Of a stretch of 64,000 nucleotides of DNA, positions 4,472 through 59,153 are shown in pieces. Within the stretch, counting starts at the first letter, position 1. Each line of letters opens with the position of its first letter. The position numbers and the translations under genes were made by a program. A model generated the notes under the pieces. The model saw nothing but the letters and a program-made list of their open reading frames with translations. It was not told where the DNA came from and did not search any database. Source of the DNA: a virus (lineage: Duplodnaviria > Caudoviricetes); the IMG/VR virus record IMGVR_UViG_3300037761_000250, positions 1 to 64,000 of that record; one strand, 5' to 3'.

Positions 4472-7006
4472 GTGAGTGCGGGGGTGGCAAGCCTGGTTGT
4501 TGATAAACGAGCGTACTTTCAGCAGCTCGGGTATCAACCACATCCGAAGCAGTGGCTATACCACATGTCTAGATCTCGCTTCCGTGCTGCTGTATGTGGC
4601 CGGCGCTTTGGTAAGTCGTGCATGGCTGCTAGGGATCTTGAGCCGGAGCTGATGGTTCCTAACCGTCGCTATTGGATTGTCGGCCCTTGTGTCGATGAGT
4701 TGACGGAGATCTTTACAGATCGAGGTTGGTTGCGCTACGACGAAGTTGTTGTTGGCGATCGAACACTTTCGATTAACCCCAAGACGGGCTTAAGCGAGTG
4801 GGATACAGTTGAGAAGGTCTTGCGGAAGTCGGGTGTGCATCCTGTCATTCGAATGGAGGGACACTCCTTCTCATCTGTCTCCACACCTGATCACCGTTGG
4901 TTGACTAATAGACGTTGGGACAGTATTGGGGGTGCACGTGTTCCACGTCTTCCGGGGGTCTTGCAGCCGATAGCTGACAAATTGCCCAAGACTGACAACG
5001 GTTGGACTTGGCGCACTACAGCGACGCTTACGGCAGATGATAGAATTCCGACTGCGGCTCCCTGTGTCGATGTCCCTACCGAACCGAAGTACACTGATGC
5101 CTTTGTAGAACTGGTTGCTTGGATCTGGACTGAAGGCTCTCTGTCACGGAGTACGAGGCAGACCCAGACGTGCTTCCAGATACATCAGTCACACGTAGCG
5201 AATCCTGATAAGGTGAGTCGCATTCGTCGTGCGCTCGAGGCAGTTGGTGCCTCCTACTACGAATTTCAGGATGTTCGCAATGGCACACCAATGACTCACT
5301 TTGAGCTCAATGCTACTACGTCGTTCGAGTTCTGGAAGGTCTTTAAATCACATAAGGTGGTAGATCCCGAATTCATTACGTCCCTAACACGTGCACAGCT
5401 GCAGCTCTTTGTTGGCGTCTCCGTTCTCGGTGATGGGACAGGCGTACATCGAGAAACGCAGTGCAATATAGTGCAGGAGAATGAGAAACAGCTTTTTGCT
5501 GTGCAGATGGCCTGCCACCTCCTAGGCATTCGCACCAGCCTGCGTCAGCAGGATATGATGTCATACGGCAAGCCTGGAAAGAAGTGGGTGCTAGGCCTCC
5601 TAACGCAGACCTTCGTGAATCCTAAACGGGCTGTGTACAACGCCGGAGCCGAAGGTATGCGCATCACGTACGAGACGTACGAGGGGACTGTTTGGTGTGT
5701 AACAACTCGTAATGGTAACTGGCTTTCTCAGCGTAAGGGTTCTGTGTCATATACTGCAAATACCTACGATCTCGGGGAGAAAGAATTTCGGTATCTCTGG
5801 CAGGACATGATCATCAAGCTTCGGTTCGGTCGAGACAAGCGAGTCAAGAAGGCTTACAACAAGCGTAGCGGTGAGATGTATATAGAGTTTCCGTGGCAGA
5901 CGCGTGTTGAAGTAAGAAGCGCCCAGCACCCCGAGACGCTTGTTGGTGATGGCCTCCATGGCGCCATTATGTCGGAGGCCGCGAAGCACCGCAAGGACAC
6001 CTGGGAGCAGTATATTCGCGCAGCTCTTTCGGACTTCCGTGGATGGGCGACCTTCGTTACTACTCCAGAGGGCTTCAACTGGCTATATGACCTTTGGATG
6101 TTGGGCATTTCTGGAGATGTTGGGCTTAAGGACTACGAGTCGTGGCGGTTCCCGTCGTGGGACAACCCCATTGTGTATCCTGGCGGTCGTGAGGATGAGG
6201 AAATCAAGCTCATCGAGCGTACTACGGCACTAGAGTGGTTTATGCAGGAATTTGGTGCTGAGTTTGGCGCTTTCGTTGGTAAGATCTATGGCGAGTTCGA
6301 TCCGACGTTGCACATCAAGCGACACACCTTCAATCCTGCATGGGCTAACTACATTGCCTTCGACTGGGGCTTCACGAATCCGTTAGCTGCAGTAGAGTTC
6401 CAGGTTGACCCTTGGGATCGGGTGTATGTGTGGCGCGAGCACTACAAGTCCTTCCTACAATTGGGTGAACACATCCAGATTCTAAAGAATCGCCAGCAGC
6501 CTGAAGGGTACCACCTAGACGTTGGATTTGGTGATGCTGCCGATCCTGCGGCTGCGATGGAGATGAGTACACACTTTGTTGGTACGTGGGCACTTCCAGA
6601 GGCTAAGGAGAACTGGCGTCAAGGTGTGGATTTGGTTAAGAAGTTCTTGAAGCCTCGGGATGTGTATAGCCCCGGTGGTAGTCTGGTTGTTTGTGATGAG
6701 TATGGCACACCGCTTCAAGAGCCGTGGATGTTTATAGATCCATCCTGTATTAACACCATCCGAGAGTTCAACAACTATCGTGCAGCTGATGCTCGGCCCG
6801 AAGTCAACCCCCGAGAAGCAGCCAAGAAGCATGATGATCACGCGCTCGATGCTATTCGCTACGGACTCATGCACATCTTTGAGTTGGGTTGTGCGTCACG
6901 CTTGTCGGATGTGTACGACCTGAACGAGTTTTCCGACACCTCAAAAGCCTTCGGATCTGTTGAGGGCTCGGGGTACTTTACCACAAGCGATCTGGATGAC
7001 ATGTAG
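4472..7006 (+). CDS. terL: Terminase large subunit containing an intein
   Basis: Walker A GRRFGKS, Walker B IMSEA, TTPEG motif, nuclease DWG and DHALDA; collinear with 57618-59153 apart from a 358-aa insertion. Confidence 0.95.
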   Translation: MSAGVASLVVDKRAYFQQLGYQPHPKQWLYHMSRSRFRAAVCGRRFGKSCMAARDLEPELMVPNRRYWIVGPCVDELTEIFTDRGWLRYDEVVVGDRTLSINPKTGLSEWDTVEKVLRKSGVHPVIRMEGHSFSSVSTPDHRWLTNRRWDSIGGARVPRLPGVLQPIADKLPKTDNGWTWRTTATLTADDRIPTAAPCVDVPTEPKYTDAFVELVAWIWTEGSLSRSTRQTQTCFQIHQSHVANPDKVSRIRRALEAVGASYYEFQDVRNGTPMTHFELNATTSFEFWKVFKSHKVVDPEFITSLTRAQLQLFVGVSVLGDGTGVHRETQCNIVQENEKQLFAVQMACHLLGIRTSLRQQDMMSYGKPGKKWVLGLLTQTFVNPKRAVYNAGAEGMRITYETYEGTVWCVTTRNGNWLSQRKGSVSYTANTYDLGEKEFRYLWQDMIIKLRFGRDKRVKKAYNKRSGEMYIEFPWQTRVEVRSAQHPETLVGDGLHGAIMSEAAKHRKDTWEQYIRAALSDFRGWATFVTTPEGFNWLYDLWMLGISGDVGLKDYESWRFPSWDNPIVYPGGREDEEIKLIERTTALEWFMQEFGAEFGAFVGKIYGEFDPTLHIKRHTFNPAWANYIAFDWGFTNPLAAVEFQVDPWDRVYVWREHYKSFLQLGEHIQILKNRQQPEGYHLDVGFGDAADPAAAMEMSTHFVGTWALPEAKENWRQGVDLVKKFLKPRDVYSPGGSLVVCDEYGTPLQEPWMFIDPSCINTIREFNNYRAADARPEVNPREAAKKHDDHALDAIRYGLMHIFELGCASRLSDVYDLNEFSDTSKAFGSVEGSGYFTTSDLDDM
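4688..5761 (+). mobile_element. Intein with LAGLIDADG-type homing endonuclease domain
   Basis: Starts Cys (GP|CVDELTEI), block B TPDHRW, endonuclease motifs ELVAWIWTEG and FVGVSVLGDG, ends SYTAN|T; absent from second TerL. Confidence 0.92.
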
Positions 7007-33746: not shown

Positions 33747-33942
33747 TTTCGTCTCCGTTTTCTAGAAGCCTATGTACTTCTTTAACTGGATACCTACGAC
33801 GTCCATTTGGTAATTCTATGTTGATAATTCTACCTTCTTTTGCCCATTTATTAACTGTTTTTGGACTTACACGAAAAAAGGCAGCTACTTCTGATGGAGT
33901 GTAAAAACATTGGACTTTTGGATCTAGTTTGTTTTCATTCAT
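33736..33942 (-). CDS. BldC-like MerR-family DNA-binding protein
   Basis: YTPSEVAAFFRVSPKTVNKWAKEGRI closely parallels Streptomyces BldC LTPAEVATMFRVDPKTVTRWAKAGKL. Confidence 0.8.
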   Translation of the reverse strand: MNENKLDPKVQCFYTPSEVAAFFRVSPKTVNKWAKEGRIINIELPNGRRRYPVKEVHRLLENGDESVD

Positions 33943-34327
33943 GATCTAAGGACCCATGAATTTGTTTGGCTATTTCTTGGGCAGTTTGACCATGATCTAC
34001 CCAATCATAACCTTTACGAGCTAACTCATAAGCAATTGATTTGTCAACTTCATGCTTTTTTTCGAGTATTTCACCAACCGATACCTCATCATAAATTTTC
34101 ATTTTACCTCTCAAAATTTTCTCACGCTGCCTCTGAGTCGTTCCTCCCCAAATACCATGTAATTTAGTCACGGGCCAACTGAGCGCGTATCTTAAACATT
34201 CATTGGTAACTGGACAGCGACGGCAAACTGACTTTGCCTTTTTTGGTTTTCTTCCAGCGTCCTTAAAGAATATTTCTCTATCATAATTACGACAAAGTGC
34301 TTTTTCTTGCCAAGATAGGTCGTCCAT
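33935..34327 (-). CDS. whiB: WhiB-family Fe-S transcription factor
   Basis: W...A.C, FF, AK.VC..CPV..EC, GIWGG.T...R. Confidence 0.92.
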   Translation of the reverse strand: MDDLSWQEKALCRNYDREIFFKDAGRKPKKAKSVCRRCPVTNECLRYALSWPVTKLHGIWGGTTQRQREKILRGKMKIYDEVSVGEILEKKHEVDKSIAYELARKGYDWVDHGQTAQEIAKQIHGSLDHE

Positions 34328-34738: not shown

Positions 34739-34933
34739 ATTACGAAAATACAATGCCAGCAGCAGTGAACAGGCCATTATCTACTAGGCAAACGGGTAAA
34801 TAATTTGCTGTACTATGAAATTTCCTCGGTGCACCTGCTGGCAATCGAACTCCATTTTCAAAAAGCCATGCCTCTTTGGTCATATTGGTCGGATTAATAT
34901 AAATTCCCATTTCTACCTTCTTTCTTTTAGGAG

Positions 34934-35006
34934 TGCCCCCAACAGGATTCGAACCTGCGACCTTCGCATTAAAAGTGCGTAGCTCTGGCCACTGAGCTAT
35001 GGAGGC
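34934..35006 (-). tRNA. trnK: tRNA-Lys(UUU)
   Basis: Cloverleaf: GCCTCCA/TGGGGGC acceptor, loop CT-TTT-AA, GGTTCGAATCC T arm. Confidence 0.92.
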
Positions 35007-35056
35007 AAAAATGGGGAGGCTATATGCCTCCCCGTTTTTATTTCAACAAATATGTT

Positions 35057-35557
35057 CTACAGTCCTACCTCAGTTGCTGCATGTTCCGCTTGCTTTGTGG
35101 TAAATCCTTCGAATTCCAACTGCTCGATCAGTCCTTGACGGGAGAAGTTCGAGAACTCAAGGTAATTCTCGGCACTACCAACAGCCTGCGCCATCCAGTC
35201 TACATCTAGATAATCAACCGCGAACTCGGCATCTTCCGTAGAGAATCCTTCGAGTTCTAATTGATTAATAAGTCCCTTGCGGGAGAAATTGAAAATATCC
35301 AGGTAATTTTGAGCCGATCCAGTTGCTTGTTTCTGGGCAGTTGTCAACTCTGGATCGGTTGACATTTCTGTTTCTTTATTATTCTCAGGTTGAACGGTAA
35401 TGTTATCGCTCTGTCCTAAAGACGTAAGGGTAACAATTGTACCAAGAAGACACATCCCCAAAATTCCAACTAATACAATTAGAACAATCCTTCTTGTTTT
35501 GTTCTTCTTCTTTTTCGGAGGAAACTCTCCGTTTTGTTGTGGATAATACTGTGTCAC
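35057..35557 (-). CDS. Ltp-family lipoprotein (superinfection exclusion-like)
   Basis: TM helix then two SA.NYL....FSR.GLI.QL..EGF repeats. Confidence 0.85.
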   Translation of the reverse strand: MTQYYPQQNGEFPPKKKKNKTRRIVLIVLVGILGMCLLGTIVTLTSLGQSDNITVQPENNKETEMSTDPELTTAQKQATGSAQNYLDIFNFSRKGLINQLELEGFSTEDAEFAVDYLDVDWMAQAVGSAENYLEFSNFSRQGLIEQLEFEGFTTKQAEHAATEVGL

Positions 35558-35604
35558 TAAATTCCTTTCAAGTATTTAAGATATAATATATGGTTTCACT
35601 TGCG

Positions 35605-35677
35605 TAGTCCCAATGGGATTTGAACCCATGTCTCCGGAGCGAAAATCCGGAATCCTTGGCCACTAGACGATGGAACC
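35605..35677 (-). tRNA. trnE: tRNA-Glu(UUC)
   Basis: GGTTCCA/TGGGACT acceptor, CCGGA-TT-TTC-GC-TCCGG anticodon arm, GGTTCAAATCC. Confidence 0.9.
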
Positions 35678-35679
35678 AG

Positions 35680-35779
35680 GGAATAGTGTTGCGGTTGGAA
35701 ATTCCGCCTCCGTGCCTCACTATTGCTCAATGGCAAGATTACTCGGCAAGGTACCTTCCACGGCCCTCTTCACTATTCC
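35680..35779 (-). ncRNA. Candidate 100-nt structured RNA between tRNA-Glu and tRNA-Gln
   Basis: Terminal 9-bp helix GGAATAGTG/CACTATTCC, internal CCGTG/CACGG and hairpins. Confidence 0.45.
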
Positions 35780-35780
35780 G

Positions 35781-35852
35781 CTGGGATACCAAGATTCGAA
35801 CTTGGACTGTCGGAACCAAAATCCGATGGCCTGCCATTTAGCCTATATCCCA
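35781..35852 (-). tRNA. trnQ: tRNA-Gln(UUG)
   Basis: TGGGATA/TATCCCA acceptor, TCGGA-TT-TTG-GT-TCCGA, AGTTCGAATCT. Confidence 0.9.
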
Positions 35853-35856
35853 TTGC

Positions 35857-36290
35857 AGTGTTGAGGTTATTCACGTCTCTAGAAAGTAAACGGACAAAGA
35901 AAACTTTCGAGCCGAAGAACAGGAATGTTTGGAGCCATTCCTGCATTGTTCTTAAAACAATTGTTCCCTCAACACTACGCTTATTGAACCCACGTCAGTG
36001 ACCTAAGATGATTAACAGCCTGTGATGTTAATTTATCATCTTATATTAGATGGTCATTGACGTGGGTCTTTCACAACTCAGGACTTGACTAATAATCAAG
36101 TAAGGCGCCTGAGCTAGCTTTAAGTGGGTATCGTGGTTGCCAGCCCATACCCAGTAAATCTCACCTGGCCGAACAGATGTATTCACAGTGCGTCGGTGCA
36201 CAGACAGAGCGTTCTATTGTCCAAACGGGTCAGGGTGCTTGAGCAATTAACGGGTGTCTTTACCATTTGTTAGTAAAATTTACTAACATC
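35857..36290 (-). ncRNA. Candidate structured ncRNA region
   Basis: Consecutive stems 35857-35866/35967-35976, 35988-36003/36052-36067 and further hairpins; no credible ORF. Confidence 0.55.
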
Positions 36291-36294
36291 GACG

Positions 36295-36436
36295 TGGGGC
36301 GGACAGGACTTGAACCTGTATCCTGCTGTCGTCGTTCACCCACCGGAAACCTCGCCTTGGTTGGCTACTCAGCCCAGCTATTTTCCAGCTTAACAGGTGG
36401 TGCTAGCACGCAGCTCTACCGTTGAGCTACCGCCCC
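36295..36436 (-). tRNA. Atypical 142-nt tRNA with ~69-nt structured insertion (Ala-like body, possible AGC anticodon)
   Basis: GGGGCGG/CCGCCCC acceptor, GCTC/GAGC D stem, ACAGG-TTCAAGT-CCTGT T arm; insertion folds into three hairpins. Confidence 0.7.
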
Positions 36437-36438
36437 TC

Positions 36439-36742
36439 GATGGAGGAAAATGGCCATTCCCTCCATCTATCTACATTTGTTTAAGGAAAATAAACGTAGA
36501 AAACAACCCCACAGTTTAGGATGCACGTCCCGAGATAGCGGTTCTCACAACTTTTGTGTGACTTGTCACGAACCACCAGCTAAAGAAGTTTGTAAACGTG
36601 CATTCCAAACTTCTTTACTGGTTCAGTCGATGACGAGGAGTAAGTTGCCAACTCACCTCGAACCTCACGCAGTCGAGGCCAAGCGTCCAGTTTTGGTTTT
36701 GTTCACTTTAAGTGAACCAAGGTGTAACTGGAAAACACCTCG
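36439..36742 (-). ncRNA. Candidate ~300-nt structured ncRNA
   Basis: Stems gatggagg/cctccatc, 36581-36592/36606-36617, gttcact/agtgaac; loop complementary to 36521-36528. Confidence 0.55.
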
Positions 36743-36815
36743 TGCGCCAAGTAGGATTTGAACCTACACTATACCGGGCTTAAACCGGTTGCCTCTACCG
36801 TTGGGCTATTAGCGC
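36743..36815 (-). tRNA. trnL: tRNA-Leu(UAA) with short variable loop
   Basis: GCGCTAA/TTGGCGC acceptor, ACCGG-TT-TAA-GC-CCGGT, 5-nt variable region, GGTTCAAATCC. Confidence 0.85.
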
Positions 36816-36829
36816 GTCTAAATGAGTTG

Positions 36830-37791
36830 TTTAATTTATTATTTACCACTTAATGTGGAAGTGTCGCGTCGACTTTGCAACTCAGTATCCGGCGGTCCTT
36901 CTTGTTTAAGACAGTGTATCTGTCACCGTCAATACTGGACACTTCCACATTAAGTGGTCAATAATAAATTAAAAGTTAAAAAGTTGTGAGTAGTCCCGGA
37001 CGGATTAGTCTTAGTCTGTTCTCCCAGGCCGGGACACCCAGTTCCAGAACTTTTAGTGCGCGCGCTCCGTGGTCTCGTCGCCGAGATTGCATACTCACAA
37101 CTTGGACAATAGCCAATATATCTAGATATACTGACTATTATCACTTGGGCACATAACTAGATGTCGTTTAATACCGAGGTTCTCCAACCAGGTACCCCAA
37201 GCTTAGTAAAGGTCAACAGACGAATAATAATCCCCTATCCGTTCTGCCCGTTACCGGATTTTCGACCTTCACTGATTCAACTTTTGGAACTACGGCGTCG
37301 ACCAAACCGCACTTGCCTCTTTAATCCCTATGCCTAATCCTGACGGACAGGTCTCCCTCACGGGTGGCCACGGGCCGCAACGCAGAGCTACCTCGTTACG
37401 GTAGATGCGGTTCCTAACCCTTATCAATCCCGGAGGATGATAAGGAATTAATTTGTCCATCGTGACGACAATGTTTGCTCCGTCCATGAACTTTCGGTTT
37501 GACCAGAGGAACTATTGCGCGGATTCAGGCAATTAATCTCACGATTAATGCAATCTCCGAGGAGATTATCTTTGCTCATCGCTCACACTTCCGGAGTGTC
37601 CACCGGAAGACTCCTACCACCGACAGGGAAAATTCGAAGGTATGCCTTTAGTTCGCTAAGCTGAACAGGTCATGACTCCTGCGTGCCACATCCGTGGAAG
37701 TACCACTGTTATATGACATACCAACGTTTTAGGTGTCCCGTTTTTCGCGCACCTTCGGGACCACAAGGCGAGGAAGCATTAAATGCCGCGG
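36830..37791 (-). ncRNA. Candidate large structured ncRNA (~960 nt)
   Basis: 36-bp IR (35/36) at 36830-36865/36938-36973, 12-bp helix 36981-36992/37092-37103, many hairpins, no credible ORF. Confidence 0.6.
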
Positions 37792-37865
37792 TGGCGGGGA
37801 CGGGATTTGAACCCGTGAACTCCAGATTATGAGTCTGGCGTGGTACCGAACTCCACTACCCCGCG
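37792..37865 (-). tRNA. trnM: tRNA-Met(CAU), initiator-like
   Basis: CGCGGGG 5' end with C1xC72 mismatch, CCAGA-CT-CAT-AA-TCTGG, TTCAAAT T loop. Confidence 0.88.
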
Positions 37866-38185
37866 TCACGTAGCGGTTGGTTAGGCCGCTACGGTCGGGA
37901 ACCACCCGACAAGTCCAAGAGAAATATTAATTCCTAACCGATTATAGGATCGTTATTCTCTTGGAGGTTTGAGTGGGCGCCTGTTCAGTCTATCGTATTG
38001 GCGACAATCCCTTGACGCCTCAAAAGTCAGGCCGGTCGTTTAAAACATTCCAGCGCGTGTAAGAATGTCCCCACGTGTATTTCTAAGAATTCAATTGTCA
38101 ATGTCCGTTTGCTGCCCGTTTGTGGCCCGTTCGGGCGCCTCTCGCCCTATCGTAGCGCATGGGCGGGCAGGCGCGCAACCCGGTA

Positions 38186-38219
38186 TCAAGATCAAGTTAC
38201 TCGAGTAACTTGATCTTGA
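38186..38219. promoter_or_regulatory. Perfect 34-bp palindrome upstream of tRNA/ncRNA cluster
   Basis: tcaagatcaagttactc|gagtaacttgatcttga. Confidence 0.7.
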
Positions 38220-38236
38220 CGAATAGGACTGGTGTA

Positions 38237-38479
38237 CTAATGCTGTTTATTCCAGGCCAAATCAAACGCATCATCCGCATCATCATTGGATGGTCCAATT
38301 GAATTAGTCGGATCAGGTGGTGGCAATGGAACTACACTAGTTGGTAATGTAAAATTATCCGTCGGTCTATCTTTAACTAGCCAATTAATAATTTCCCATG
38401 GAATCCAAATTAGTGCTCCAAACCCGCAAGTCAGTATGGTAATAATGCACAGGAATAGTCTTATTTTTCTTGATTCCAT
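38237..38479 (-). CDS. Small membrane protein
   Basis: N-terminal TM, Pro-rich then acidic tail. Confidence 0.65.
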   Translation of the reverse strand: MESRKIRLFLCIITILTCGFGALIWIPWEIINWLVKDRPTDNFTLPTSVVPLPPPDPTNSIGPSNDDADDAFDLAWNKQH

Positions 38480-38490
38480 GTATATATACC

Positions 38491-38730
38491 TTACACTGAT
38501 AGCAGTTCATTCTTAACTAAGTAATTAAAGCTTACATCACTTAGCCATAGATTTATTCCATAATTATTAACGTCCGCAGTTACTGCGAAACTGCTACCAT
38601 ATGGTAAATCTTCACGTTCCATCAAAGACTTAACTAACTCATTTACTGTTTCTCGTTTTGCTTGAACGTGGTGTGGAAATACATCGGGCAAATTCTTTTG
38701 GTAAATTGACATATTAATTTCACTTACCAA
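38491..38730 (-). CDS. Hypothetical protein
   Basis: ORF in operon. Confidence 0.55.
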   Translation of the reverse strand: MVSEINMSIYQKNLPDVFPHHVQAKRETVNELVKSLMEREDLPYGSSFAVTADVNNYGINLWLSDVSFNYLVKNELLSV

Positions 38731-38996
38731 TCTTTTCTATGTTGAGAAATGTGAAGTCCTCTTGACTTTAGCATTTCTTCAAGTCTGTCTACCTTTAAAA
38801 TAGACAGAGCCTGCTTGTCTAATGCCTCTTCTACTTCCTCAATGACAGGTGGTGTTGAACTTAATTTAGTAGGTTTATATTCTTCACGACAAGACTTACA
38901 ACGTACTGGTGGTCGACCGCGCCCTCCTCGAATTTTAAATTCCTGACGACAGTCTCGGCAAACACGAGTATTAGTTAACACTGTTAATAATTCCAA
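38724..38996 (-). CDS. Zn-binding hypothetical protein
   Basis: CRDC...GRPPVRCKSC. Confidence 0.6.
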   Translation of the reverse strand: MELLTVLTNTRVCRDCRQEFKIRGGRGRPPVRCKSCREEYKPTKLSSTPPVIEEVEEALDKQALSILKVDRLEEMLKSRGLHISQHRKDW

Positions 38997-39192
38997 TCAC
39001 TAGAACAATAATTGCAAAGATTGCAATTATTATGAATGGCCAGCCCGTAAAATGTTCACCATCACTATCACCATTACCATTCCAGTCGGGCATTTTTATT
39101 CTCCAAGATCATTTTGTAGGTACACTAATGTTAATCCATTTCATAGGTGGTAAGAGGAGGAGTGCCGAGCGTCCATAACGACACTCCTCCAG

Positions 39193-39266
39193 TGGGACAA
39201 GAGGGACTTGAACCCCCGACCGATCGATTATGAGTCGACTGCTCTAACCAGCTGAGCTATTGTCCC
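39193..39266 (-). tRNA. tRNA(CAU), elongator Met or Ile2
   Basis: GGGACAA/TTGTCCC acceptor, GTCGA-CT-CAT-AA-TCGAT, GGTTCAAGTCC; anticodon arm resembles Ile2 tRNAs. Confidence 0.88.
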
Positions 39267-39311
39267 AACAATGACGCAGCTTCTATAACTACGCCATGTT
39301 AATTTGGGTGT

Positions 39312-39581
39312 TTAACTCTTTGCTATTAATCCCAATATATTCAATAATGCCTCTGCACTAGTTTTAGCTTCTTGTAATTCATTCTTTATTTCTTCTAATG
39401 TTCCAGACAGAATTGGTTCCTCTGATTCTGAGCTATACAAAACATATACTTTAATTGATTTGTATCCAATTACCCTTTTGTATTCATATGTTCCATCAGG
39501 TAATGGATATTCAGTAGTTATTTTATCAGTAATTGGTCGTAGTACGTCAGGTTGATTTTCAAATCGAAAAAAGAATTTCAT
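39312..39581 (-). CDS. Hypothetical protein
   Basis: ORF with upstream AGGTAG. Confidence 0.55.
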   Translation of the reverse strand: MKFFFRFENQPDVLRPITDKITTEYPLPDGTYEYKRVIGYKSIKVYVLYSSESEEPILSGTLEEIKNELQEAKTSAEALLNILGLIAKS

Positions 39582-50294: not shown

Positions 50295-50354
50295 GTTTCT
50301 CCTTTTTACTCTTCACTTTTTTACAAAAACATGAAGAATCTATAAGGCTAACTA

Positions 50355-50892
50355 ATCGATGATCTTGAACTAGCTATCTTCAAGGTCATCGATGAGACAC
50401 CCCCCTCTGACCTGCGAGTATGCGGTGAATCTACGCGATCTGCTTTATTAGTAAATGAGAATCGATGATCTTGAACTAGCTATCTTAAAGATCATCTATG
50501 TGTCACCCCTTCTGACCTGCTCATATTCGGTGAATCCACGTGATCTGCTTTATTAGTAAATGAGAATTGACCACTGTCGATCACTACTTGATCTACTAGA
50601 TCAGTGGTCGTCGATTCTACGTGATCTGCTTTATTCGTAAATGAGAATGCCCTGGTCAGAGCGTTTTTGATCTCATTTACCTCTTAGAATGAAAATGAGA
50701 ATTTGCAAGATCAAAATACCTCCTGAGCTGCACATTCTCATTTTCTCTTATCTATGAGCGGATCACGTATATTTGATGGTTGTCAATTCTCATTTACTAA
50801 TATAGCAGATCACGTAGATTTGCCGAGTATGCGCAGGTCAGACCCGGTGTTCCATCGACGATCTTGAAGATAGATAGTTCAAGATCATCGAT
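50355..50892. repeat. ~105-bp unit: two direct copies, one partial, one inverted; putative replication origin
   Basis: Units 50355-50460, 50461-50565, partial 50616-50648, inverted 50785-50892; each full unit contains an internal palindrome. Confidence 0.85.
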
Positions 50893-51469
50893 GACCCGAG
50901 TGACTTTTTGCCCATTCTCCGCAAAAATCTATGCGGAGTATTGATTGAGGAGCTTTTTCTAGGTTAAATAGTCTAGAAATTGCCCGTTCCACTGACATTT
51001 CTTGCGATTGCCAGTGTCTGCCTTGTATTTGTCTATCTACTATTACCCATAGCGTTCCGGTTTTTAACCGGATGCGCATTGACGAACTAACCCGCTGAGT
51101 AAGTGACCTGGTTATTGTGGTCACTCTATTGTGGGTTGTGTTTTTGTCTGTGGGTTGCAACAGGATTTCGTAGACGACATCGAGATCTTTGGTCAACTGA
51201 CGAAAGGTCGCCAAATGTTGCATTACCTTTTCTTGTCCACAAGTTGGACAAGCGTAACAGCCACAACGCCAAAAATTGTTTTTGGTTGTTGGACAGACTT
51301 TCTTTTCTTTCACTTTTTCCTTTTCTTTCCTTTCCTTTTTCCTTTCCTTTTTCCAATTCACCCGTAGGGGTAAAGAAATTAGAGGAAATAGGAAAATTGG
51401 GAAAATTAGGAAAATTGGGAAAAATAAAGGTGGTGCGCGACTAGAAACCACCCGCCGTGACCGGGGCAT
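50885..51469 (-). CDS. Rep-like Zn-finger (CxxxxCxxC) protein with low-complexity N-terminus
   Basis: GGAGG RBS before ATG 51469; RCGCYACPTCG, LDVVYEI, ILRID shared with 18669-19349. Confidence 0.65.
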   Translation of the reverse strand: MPRSRRVVSSRAPPLFFPIFLIFPIFLFPLISLPLRVNWKKERKKERKEKEKVKEKKVCPTTKNNFWRCGCYACPTCGQEKVMQHLATFRQLTKDLDVVYEILLQPTDKNTTHNRVTTITRSLTQRVSSSMRIRLKTGTLWVIVDRQIQGRHWQSQEMSVERAISRLFNLEKAPQSILRIDFCGEWAKSHSGHR

Positions 51470-57617: not shown

Positions 57618-59153
57618 ATGGCTATTGACATAGATCATAACGAGTATGAGGATGATGCTGTCTATGATGTAGAAATAGATGTCAATGACCAGGAACAGGA
57701 GCCTCCTAAAACTAGGGTTGATAAAAACAAGTATTTCGACATGGTTAACTACCAGCCACATGGTCGACAGTGGCTTTTTCATCGAAGTAAGGCAAGGTTC
57801 AAGGTAGTCGTAGCCGGCAGGCGAGCTGGAAAATCCTTAATGACTGCCAAGGACATTGAACCAATGCTAATGGTTCCAAATAAACGTGTCTGGCTAGTCG
57901 GAAACACGTATGATTTAGCTGAAAAAGAATTCCGGGTGATCTGGGATGACATGATTATCCGGCTAGGATTTGGGCAGGACAAGCGGGTAATTAAGGCTTA
58001 CAACCGTAAACAAGGAAATATGTTCATCAAGTTTCCTTGGAATACAATCATTGAATGTCGGTCGGCCGAACGTAAGGAAACCTTGGTTGGTGACTCGCTA
58101 GACTTAGTGGTACTGTGCGAGGCAGCCAAGCACCTCCGCGAGACCTGGGAGCGGTTTCTTAGGCCGGCGCTGTCGGACCGGCGTGGTAGTGCCATTTTTA
58201 GTACAACTCCAGAAGGACAAAACTGGGTTTACGAATTATGGCAGCATGGCCAGAACCCTCGTCCAGAATATGTAGATTATCAGAGCTGGTCGTATCCGAG
58301 TTGGGAAAATGATGTTATCTATCCTGGGGGATATGATGATCCGGAAATTCAGCTCATGCGACTTACCATGTCTTCGGACGAATTTGACCAGGAAATTGGC
58401 GCTAGCTTCACTAGTTTTAGTGGTAAGATCTATGCCGAGTTCGATGAGAATGTTCATGTCAAGGAACATATTTTCAACCCGGCGTGGAGAAATTATGTTT
58501 GTATGGACTTTGGATTCAATAACCCATTCGCAGCGGTTGAATTTCAGGTAGACCCGCAGGACAGAATATACGTATGGCGAGAATACTACAAGTCCGGAAT
58601 GCGCTTGGAAGACCACCTGGATTTTATGAGATCAAGGAAACAGCCAGATGGTTACCGAGTTGATATGTGCTTTGGTGATGCGGCTGACCCGGAAGCTATC
58701 GAAACCATAAATGTAAAGTTTGGTCCCTGCGTCGGCGACCCGTTGTCTAAGGTTAACTGGCGAGAGGGTATTGAGCAGGTCAAGTTTTTCTTAAAAGTTC
58801 AAGGTGAAGGCGATGACGGCCAGCCTTGGTTGATTTTAGACCATAGTTGTAAAAATGGCATTCGAGAGTTTAACAACTACAAGGCTCCAGACACTGGTCG
58901 AGTTGAACGTAACCCACGAGAAGATGCCAAGAAGCATGATGACCACTTCTTAGACGCACTAAGATATGGAATTATGCATGTGTTCAAGCTAGGATATCGA
59001 GTTCGGTTCAGTGATGTCATGTCAGTAGATGAATTACGAAGAACTGTTAGTCCACAAGACGGCGGAGGATACGTAAACCTGGCCGATGTTAAAGGGTATC
59101 CGGCGTTGGAGAATGCTGGTTTCGTAACTTTAGACGATCGAAGGCGGTTTTGA
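57618..59153 (+). CDS. terL: Terminase large subunit (intein-free)
   Basis: GRRAGKS, VLCEA, STTPEG, MDFG, DHFLDA. Confidence 0.95.
   Translation: MAIDIDHNEYEDDAVYDVEIDVNDQEQEPPKTRVDKNKYFDMVNYQPHGRQWLFHRSKARFKVVVAGRRAGKSLMTAKDIEPMLMVPNKRVWLVGNTYDLAEKEFRVIWDDMIIRLGFGQDKRVIKAYNRKQGNMFIKFPWNTIIECRSAERKETLVGDSLDLVVLCEAAKHLRETWERFLRPALSDRRGSAIFSTTPEGQNWVYELWQHGQNPRPEYVDYQSWSYPSWENDVIYPGGYDDPEIQLMRLTMSSDEFDQEIGASFTSFSGKIYAEFDENVHVKEHIFNPAWRNYVCMDFGFNNPFAAVEFQVDPQDRIYVWREYYKSGMRLEDHLDFMRSRKQPDGYRVDMCFGDAADPEAIETINVKFGPCVGDPLSKVNWREGIEQVKFFLKVQGEGDDGQPWLILDHSCKNGIREFNNYKAPDTGRVERNPREDAKKHDDHFLDALRYGIMHVFKLGYRVRFSDVMSVDELRRTVSPQDGGGYVNLADVKGYPALENAGFVTLDDRRRF

Follow-up and report, generated by a model that had tools for sequence, protein, structure and literature searches.

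The analysis concerns a 974-nucleotide (nt) interval, positions 36816-37789, of a 64,000-nt stretch of DNA, here called the window, which comprises positions 1 to 64,000 of the IMG/VR virus record IMGVR_UViG_3300037761_000250. The source record is the 79,278-base-pair (bp) genome of an uncultured virus, rated complete by CheckV. The interval sits between two minus-strand tRNA genes, tRNA-Met on its 5' side and tRNA-Leu on its 3' side. It is clearly non-coding, it folds far better than chance, and the evidence favours a minus-strand RNA as its product. The interval is probably part of a structured RNA island and an orphan belonging to no catalogued family. A more specific reading, for and against which we see about equal weight, is that it is the largest spacer of a tRNA-punctuated RNA island of 2.4 kb, and that it is released, folded as three domains and then split.

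A preliminary description of the same DNA had found no credible open reading frame (ORF) between tRNA-Leu and tRNA-Met, and this was borne out by ORF lengths, codon scores, domain searches and recoding. The longest minus-strand ORFs in the interval are 64 and 65 amino acids (aa) long and of odd composition, and the codon-usage score of the interval ORFs is -0.15 to +0.07 bits per codon, versus 0.15-0.28 in the flanking small genes. Pfam and PHROG searches of the interval ORFs in all frames gave no matches, and no sensible long frame opens in the interval when TGA, TAG or TAA is recoded. An independent Logan contig from the source run spans 35600-38215 with zero differences at a depth of 33, and ends only at a perfect 34-nt palindrome, so the interval sequence is not an assembly artefact. 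In public archives the sequence is listed for a single run, of DNA from a sediment metagenome and perhaps the source itself; no RNA run is listed for it.

Comparison of the folding energy with dinucleotide shuffles had been proposed as a check in the preliminary description, and the interval clearly passed it. The minimum free energy (MFE) of the minus strand is -350.8 kcal/mol, against a shuffle mean of -286.7, and the native energy was reached by none of 80 shuffles (0/20 and 0/60). The z-score is -13.6 with 20 shuffles (standard deviation, sd, 4.7) and -6.0 with 60 shuffles (sd about 10); since the sd of 4.7 is likely an underestimate, we prefer the value of -6.0. On the plus strand z is -6.6 (20 shuffles) and -5.2 (60 shuffles). 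Two coding controls of 974 nt on the minus strand gave z of -1.43 and +0.60, eight other gaps in the window gave +1.0 to -3.8 over both strands (the repeat zone 50346-50884 excepted), and windows over the intact tRNA-Gln/Glu pair gave about 0 to +1. The 5' 160 nt of the interval (37632-37789) show no local excess of structure.

The minus-strand fold is predicted as three independent domains in series, A, B and C, with no predicted pairing between them (Table 1). Domain A has an inner closure (37625-37631/37352-37358) and about ten hairpins, among them twin tetraloop hairpins (CUCG and GUGA), a cttccgg hairpin and a ccttatc hairpin. In domain B the branched hairpins (37143-37273) hold many G-U pairs, and the 17-bp hairpin (37105-37142) has three G-U pairs on the minus strand which are A-C mismatches on the plus strand. 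Domain C stops 14 nt upstream of tRNA-Leu; 72 nt separate its 36-nt arms (36830-36865/36938-36973), whose complementarity is 97%. The preliminary description had named this 36-bp helix with its 72-nt insert (36830-36973), and also a 12-bp helix at 36981-37103 around roughly 100 nt; both are present, the latter (36981-36992/37092-37103) enclosing 99 nt. The smaller hairpins it had listed, ccttatc/gataagg, cttccgg/ccggaag and a gattaat pair, are likewise in the sequence, with pair probabilities of 0.89-0.91.

One short sequence is shared by the interval and the next spacer. The 10-mer AAGUUGUGAG occurs on the RNA strand at 37094-37103 and 36544-36553, and its complement lies between them at 36981-36990; AAGTTGTGAG has three exact copies in the 64 kb (two in one orientation, one inverted), all within the island. 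The complement has two mutually exclusive 12-bp pairings: the upstream one is the 12-bp module, and the downstream alternative would bracket domain C and tRNA-Leu along with 190 nt of the spacer that follows. The AAGUUGUGAG triple could be a processing stem, a switch or a duplication.

Several lines of evidence bear on the strand. The tRNAs and the genes next to them are all encoded on minus, and several modules fold better there: z is -6.7 on minus versus -1.8 on plus for the 17-bp hairpin, -3.4 versus -1.8 for 37143-37285, -3.1 versus -1.1 for domain A, and -6.0 versus -3.4 for domain B. Three of the eight tetraloops in the minus-strand MFE structure are GNRA and one is UNCG, while none of the eleven on the plus strand is either; the ViennaRNA bonus for such loops applies to both strands alike. 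Structural RNA genes of AT-leaning genomes usually stand out by raised GC, and GC is 0.48-0.49 in the island (0.49 in the interval), compared with 0.446 in the window and 0.32-0.45 for the other gaps. Inside the island, terminator prediction on the minus strand gave no intrinsic terminator. A minus-strand RNA is favoured because of the module z-scores, the tetraloops, the GC enrichment and the orientation of tRNAs and genes.

Other observations weigh against the reading of the interval as a minus-strand structured RNA. The 123-nt module (36981-37103) folds better on plus (z -4.1) than on minus (z -2.7), and domain C is symmetric (z -9.8 minus, -10.4 plus); these two elements may have a role at the DNA level. 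When the interval is taken at its full length the strands differ little, with an energy excess over the shuffles of -59.5 kcal/mol on minus versus -47.6 on plus and an sd of about 10, and the use of G-U pairs relative to shuffles is equal on both strands. Near-perfect hairpins of 17-36 bp recur elsewhere in the intergenic DNA of this phage, and to our knowledge they are unusual among known ornate RNAs. The interval is an orphan with no covariation and no sign of purifying selection. Moreover, the small genes between 33.9 and 40.5 kb are mostly without counterpart in relatives, which suggests a hypervariable cargo zone where non-functional DNA could persist.

The preliminary description placed the element at 36830-37791. 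The ORF-free structure is indeed there, but these borders are too narrow: the ORF-free structured zone runs over 35853-38236 (2.4 kb) and contains two tRNAs, an aberrant tRNA-like element and four structured spacers with minus-strand z of -5.5 to -9.0. The leader of this island opens with the perfect 34-nt palindrome (38186-38219), directly after the stop of ORF 38237-38479. The tRNA-like element (36295-36436) has canonical acceptor, D and T arms, and an 83-nt insert replaces its anticodon stem-loop. ARAGORN reads it as tRNA-Arg interrupted by an intron of 57 nt; a group I intron would be longer than the insert. From its sequence the element could be a tRNA mimic or decoy, or else a disrupted tRNA gene. 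Neither of the tRNAs that flank the interval encodes CCA. In tRNA-Met (37790-37865) the 1:72 pair is mismatched, as in initiator tRNAs. Just upstream of this tRNA, a short minus-strand frame (37881-37952) ends in ...PTVAA-stop, with the stop codon within a 7-bp hairpin; its peptide is hydrophobic and atypical, is only superficially like a tmRNA tag, and goes with no tmRNA model match.

A search of Rfam for GOLLD, ROOL, tmRNA and RNase P, also proposed at the outset, left the interval matching no family. Rfam 15, at the gathering threshold and at E<=10 over three nested ranges, returned only tRNAs and noise, so the interval, if functional, belongs to no catalogued class. Inside 36816-37789 there is no tRNA-like match (RF00005) even at E<=10. 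The GOLLD model (RF02032, gathering 150 bits) matched neither the surrounding 4.7 kb nor a narrower 1.2 kb at E<=10; over the whole 79-kb genome it scored ten candidates, of which none passed, and in 41 related phage records it gave none, with a single noise hit of 15.6 bits. The ROOL model (RF03087, gathering 99.1 bits) gave no cmscan match around the interval at E<=10, and a whole-genome ROOL search gave no match either, a weak result since the control genomes were silent too. A tmRNA (RF00023, including two-piece forms) was rejected because neither an ARAGORN tmRNA search nor Rfam found one and there is no tag template inside the interval. Group I and group II introns and RNase P RNA were rejected as no catalytic-core model matched at E<=10, and RF01998 (group-II-D1D4-1) is absent from the genome. 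YrlA (RF02553) had no match in 34800-39500 at E<=10; the same search finds YrlA-like matches in the related locus L085. The TROVE domain (PF05731) is absent from the whole genome, and tblastn with the two TROVE proteins of relatives was blank in the island.

The interval resembles GOLLD in that both exceed 800 nt and are highly structured; GOLLD is found in phages and prophages, typically within or next to tRNA arrays, its function is unknown, and the interval lies between two tRNA genes of a phage with six tRNAs and one tRNA-like element. It differs in that GOLLD has a conserved 3' domain supported by covariation whereas the interval is without homologues, and in that its own helices include near-perfect stems of 17-36 bp. 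It is like ROOL, an ornate phage RNA often near tRNA islands, but ROOL is known from Lactobacillales and rumen bacteria, and the phage studied here is one of Actinobacteria. Y RNAs, too, are structured and non-coding; the putative ones of this phage group lie among tRNAs in the corresponding zone, and their long closing stem with a branched module resembles domain C and the 12-bp module. However, no T-loop-like motif can be read in the sequence of domain C or the 12-bp module, a Y RNA is many times smaller than the 974 nt, and the genome has no TROVE gene. The stable species 1 and 2 RNAs of the T4 tRNA cluster are non-tRNA RNAs of about 120-140 nt, co-transcribed with tRNAs and excised by tRNA-processing enzymes, and their function is unknown; we know of no sequence relation between them and the interval. 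GOLLD and ROOL are often found near tRNA islands, GOLLD env-38 being downstream of a Met-tRNA, and ROOL is an ornate phage and prophage RNA of about 580 nt with unknown function (10.1101/2024.12.08.627333). GOLLD is also placed in Mycobacterium tRNA arrays, as cited in that paper (10.1101/2024.12.08.627333).

Homologues were sought in 90 related loci (80 from IMG/VR and 4 from Logan around helicase relatives, and 6 around relatives of the Ltp gene), in whole phage records and in larger collections. The preliminary description had called for conserved homologues and covariation, and none were found in the collections searched. With blastn and nhmmer of the island against the 84 helicase-linked and 6 Ltp-linked loci there was no homologue of the interval; only the tRNAs, the Ltp gene and an element at 35857-35968 matched. 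BLAST of the interval against 41 whole related phage records gave no match, nor did blastn of the interval and both neighbouring spacers against GenBank phages. Three exact 17-mers in IMG/VR gave hits without extended similarity, and two purine/pyrimidine-coded hairpin patterns in IMG/VR and two patterns in JGI metagenome contigs gave nothing real. Single-sequence covariance models of 37143-37273 and 36981-37103 each found only themselves in 1.4 Mb of relatives, and a single-protein helicase scan of IMG/VR brought up no interval homologue. A pattern scan anchored on the conserved 35857-35968 element returned only two known relatives, L005 and L081. A search for internal paralogy of modules gave none, only hairpins. 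With no homologue to compare, neither covariation nor selection is supported for the 974 nt.

The 35857-35968 element, about the last 110 nt of the spacer upstream of tRNA-Gln, is the island's only non-coding piece conserved in relatives. It is 72% identical over 122 nt to L005 (8411-8532) and L081 (2891-3012), whose helicase is 56% identical. Some blocks are invariant, and one hairpin survives a change of G-C to G-U. In L005 the element falls between genes, and its role may be regulatory or that of a terminator.

In relatives, tRNAs are scattered over the zone upstream of the helicase, together with variable cargo. The cargo includes TROVE/Ro60 in L085 (3502-5106) and L088 (1460-3079) and a GH43 enzyme in L087, and L085 has sub-threshold YrlA matches beside its tRNAs at 2258-2370 (39.9 bits) and 2601-2693 (30 bits). 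Based on these sequences, a Ro60-Y RNA module is probable in this phage group. The tRNAs, TROVE/Ro60 and sub-threshold YrlA matches in the same zone suggest that it is a hot spot for RNA cargo. In addition, the Ltp gene with part of the upstream tRNA-Glu gene (35056-35630) matches the DNA of six contigs, L132-L137, with nhmmer E down to 7e-34. These contigs have 66-68% GC and the order Arg, Trp and Glu tRNAs, Ltp, then Gln, Gln, Glu and Cys tRNAs. A match across such extremes of GC suggests that a module of Ltp inside a tRNA array is common to phages of very different GC.

The proposed route from this DNA to an RNA is as follows. RNase P and RNase Z are the established route by which bacterial tRNA precursors are processed, and RNase III cuts long near-perfect helices. 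The minus strand would be transcribed as one precursor together with tRNA-Met, tRNA-Leu, the tRNA-like element, tRNA-Gln and tRNA-Glu. This precursor would be cut at the tRNA borders, by RNase P at the tRNA 5' ends and by RNase Z or exonucleases at the 3' ends. The cuts would free a 974-nt RNA, with RNase Z or exonucleases acting on its 5' side and RNase P on its 3' side. It is predicted to fold as independent domains A (455 nt), B (about 310 nt) and C (144 nt). The 36-bp helix of domain C seems long enough to be a likely RNase III site, and further splitting into stable modules, instead of survival as one ornate molecule, is likely for that reason. As a guess, the function may be that of stable RNAs which serve the tRNA module, in precursor stability or processing, or of decoys or sponges for host RNA-directed factors. 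The preliminary description had proposed a large non-coding RNA beside the tRNAs. Its non-coding and structured nature and its placement on the tRNA strand stand, but its unity as one RNA of about 1 kb is not supported, three independent domains being predicted.

We consider it unlikely that the 974 nt act as one molecule, a large ornate RNA of a new class analogous to GOLLD and ROOL and possibly forming a higher-order assembly. The size, the ORF-free state and the excess structure fit such an RNA, domain A is closed by a long-range helix over 455 nt with a probability of 0.97, and the GNRA tetraloops could dock. The place directly downstream of tRNA-Met in a tRNA array is also that of GOLLD env-38 (10.1101/2024.12.08.627333). 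However, there is no predicted interdomain pairing, for which the AAGUUGUGAG triple is the sole candidate, neither GOLLD nor ROOL matches at E<=10, and the 36-bp helix would probably be cut by RNase III. The neighbouring spacers are as structured as the interval, so a string of modules fits better, and with no homologues a class is as yet without content. That the element might be a new class in actinophages, as the preliminary description supposed, was therefore not borne out: no homologue was found in the collections searched, hence there is no family, and without relatives a new RNA class cannot be shown.

A rather unlikely explanation, but one with more in its favour, is that the hairpins work at the DNA level or are inert, as operator or terminator palindromes, MITE-like or recombination scars, or debris, so that the interval is only a spacer between tRNAs. 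Domain C, the strongest element, is a 97% perfect inverted repeat that folds equally on both strands, and the plus strand of the interval is also far beyond its shuffles (z -5.2 to -6.6). The island starts with the perfect 34-nt palindrome, TCAAGATCA is enriched in intergenic DNA genome-wide, the zone 50346-50884 is even more palindromic (z -15, -19) and iteron- or origin-like, and the orphan interval lies in a zone that is completely different in relatives. On the other hand, about 25 hairpins and nested long-range helices over 1 kb are unlike operators, terminators or origins, and the interval holds no direct repeats or iterons. Its inverted repeats are not found elsewhere in the genome or the collections, so it is no spread mobile element. 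Several modules fold better on minus through G-U pairs, GNRA and UNCG loops occur on minus only, and the GC of the interval is raised while other phage gaps are GC-poor. The idea that the interval is made of decayed genes, either a tRNA graveyard or a pseudogene of cargo of relatives such as TROVE/Ro60, is largely refuted and very improbable. In related phages, gaps of about 850 nt around this Ltp gene do hold four tRNAs, their 534-aa TROVE gene stands at a syntenic distance from the helicase, and the aberrant tRNA-like element lies 380 nt downstream. But the interval lacks any tRNA-like match, tblastn with both TROVE proteins was blank, no Pfam or PHROG match appears in any frame, and the z of about 0 to +1 over intact tRNA-Gln/Glu means that decayed cloverleaves would not give z of -6 to -10 or helices of 12-36 bp.

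Beyond the tRNA-punctuated island reading, the 974-nt RNA, alone or with the other island spacers and the anticodon-less tRNA-like element, might constitute a new tRNA-punctuated class of large phage RNA, an actinophage counterpart of GOLLD and ROOL that acts as an RNA-only scaffold or as a decoy in infection; this is speculative and on balance improbable. The decoy would be aimed at host RNA-targeting factors, for example anticodon nucleases or RNA quality control. The tRNA set of the phage (Lys-UUU, Glu-UUC, Gln-UUG, Leu-UAA and two Met) and the Ro60/Y-RNA cargo of relatives are what lead to this reading of a conflict at the RNA level; Lys(UUU), Glu(UUC) and Gln(UUG) are wobble-thiouridine tRNAs, targets of known anticodon nucleases.

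GOLLD and ROOL, beside phage tRNA arrays, are among the least understood RNAs in biology, and RNAs of this type have reportedly been shown in recent work to build RNA-only cages. If expressed, the island would be an unrelated further example from a low-GC phage of Actinobacteria, and would strengthen the view of tRNA arrays as general launch pads in which tRNA-processing enzymes release other functional RNAs. The genome zone itself is marked as one that swaps RNA-biology cargo across the phage group: tRNAs, tRNA mimics, Ro60 and Y-RNA-like elements. As a single sequence from one sediment sample, with no relatives, the interval is a candidate for RNA study and no established class.

Table 1. 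Features of the interval, of the island around it and of the neighbouring tRNA array, in window coordinates
Feature	Position	Strand	Details
WhiB	33935-34327	minus	
tRNA-Lys(UUU)	34933-35006	minus	
Ltp lipoprotein	35057-35557	minus	
tRNA-Glu(UUC)	35604-35677	minus	
tRNA-Gln(UUG)	35780-35852	minus	
442-nt spacer upstream of tRNA-Gln	35853-36294	minus	z -9.0 minus, -5.3 plus
Aberrant tRNA-like element, about 143 nt	36295-36436	minus	Rfam tRNA 45.8 bits, 83-nt insert
305-nt spacer downstream of tRNA-Leu	36437-36741	minus	z -5.5 minus, -4.3 plus; third AAGUUGUGAG copy 36544-36553
tRNA-Leu(UAA), 3' boundary of spacer RNA	36742-36815	minus	ARAGORN, Rfam
Domain C, 144-nt long hairpin	36830-36973	minus	predicted 36-bp near-perfect helix plus 7 pairs, branched tip; pair probability 0.93-0.99
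Domain B, about 310 nt, four helical modules	36974-37285	minus	weak 6-bp closure 37277-37282/36974-36979, pair probability 0.66
123-nt module of domain B	36981-37103	minus	12-bp closing helix AAGUUGUGAGUA/UACUCACAACUU, inner GCGA tetraloop hairpin
17-bp hairpin in domain B	37105-37142	minus	pair probability 0.99
Branched hairpins in domain B	37205-37273 (GUAA tetraloop), 37143-37202	minus	pair probability 0.97-0.98
Domain A, 455-nt multi-branched	37315-37769	minus	12-bp closing helix 37757-37769/37315-37328, pair probability 0.96-0.98
tRNA-Met(CAU), 5' boundary of spacer RNA	37790-37865	minus	ARAGORN; Rfam tRNA 65.7 bits
371-nt leader of island	37866-38236	minus	z -6.4 minus, -5.1 plus
Second tRNA-Met	39192-39266	minus	

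Between about 12 kb and 56 kb the genes of the window are on the minus strand; among them are those for a family A DNA polymerase, a Dda-like helicase, an exonuclease, an SNF2 helicase and a Prim-Pol primase. The WhiB gene of this phage and the DUF397 and Rv1352-type domains encoded by relatives point to an actinobacterial host. The polymerase is at most 31% identical to those of the nearest GenBank phages, and the nearest helicases among 5.8 billion proteins are at most 66% identical, which indicates a phage without a close sequenced relative. A helicase-profile scan of bacterial genomes found no actinobacterial prophage. Large-terminase family matches fall on two ORFs, 4472-7006 and 57618-59153; the 844-aa ORF matches in its C-terminal half only.

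Two copies of the 9-mer TCAAGATCA make up the perfect 34-nt palindrome (38186-38219) that bounds the island upstream. The 9-mer occurs nine times in the window against 0.86 expected (2984, 11584, 16977, 30561, 38186, 38211, 50360, 50466 and 50879). At least six copies lie in ORF-free gaps (2984, both arms of 38186-38219, and three in 50346-50893), and one lies 43 nt upstream of the polymerase gene. From this distribution, TCAAGATCA may be an operator or a promoter-linked motif. The zone at 50346-50893 spans about 540 nt and is built of nested inverted repeats, the longest arms reaching 41 nt, together with a unit of roughly 30 nt that is directly repeated about three times. Its fold (50346-50884; z -15 minus, -19 plus) is the strongest in the window and marks a different kind of element from the interval. 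This zone resembles an iteron region or an origin, or else a major regulatory region.

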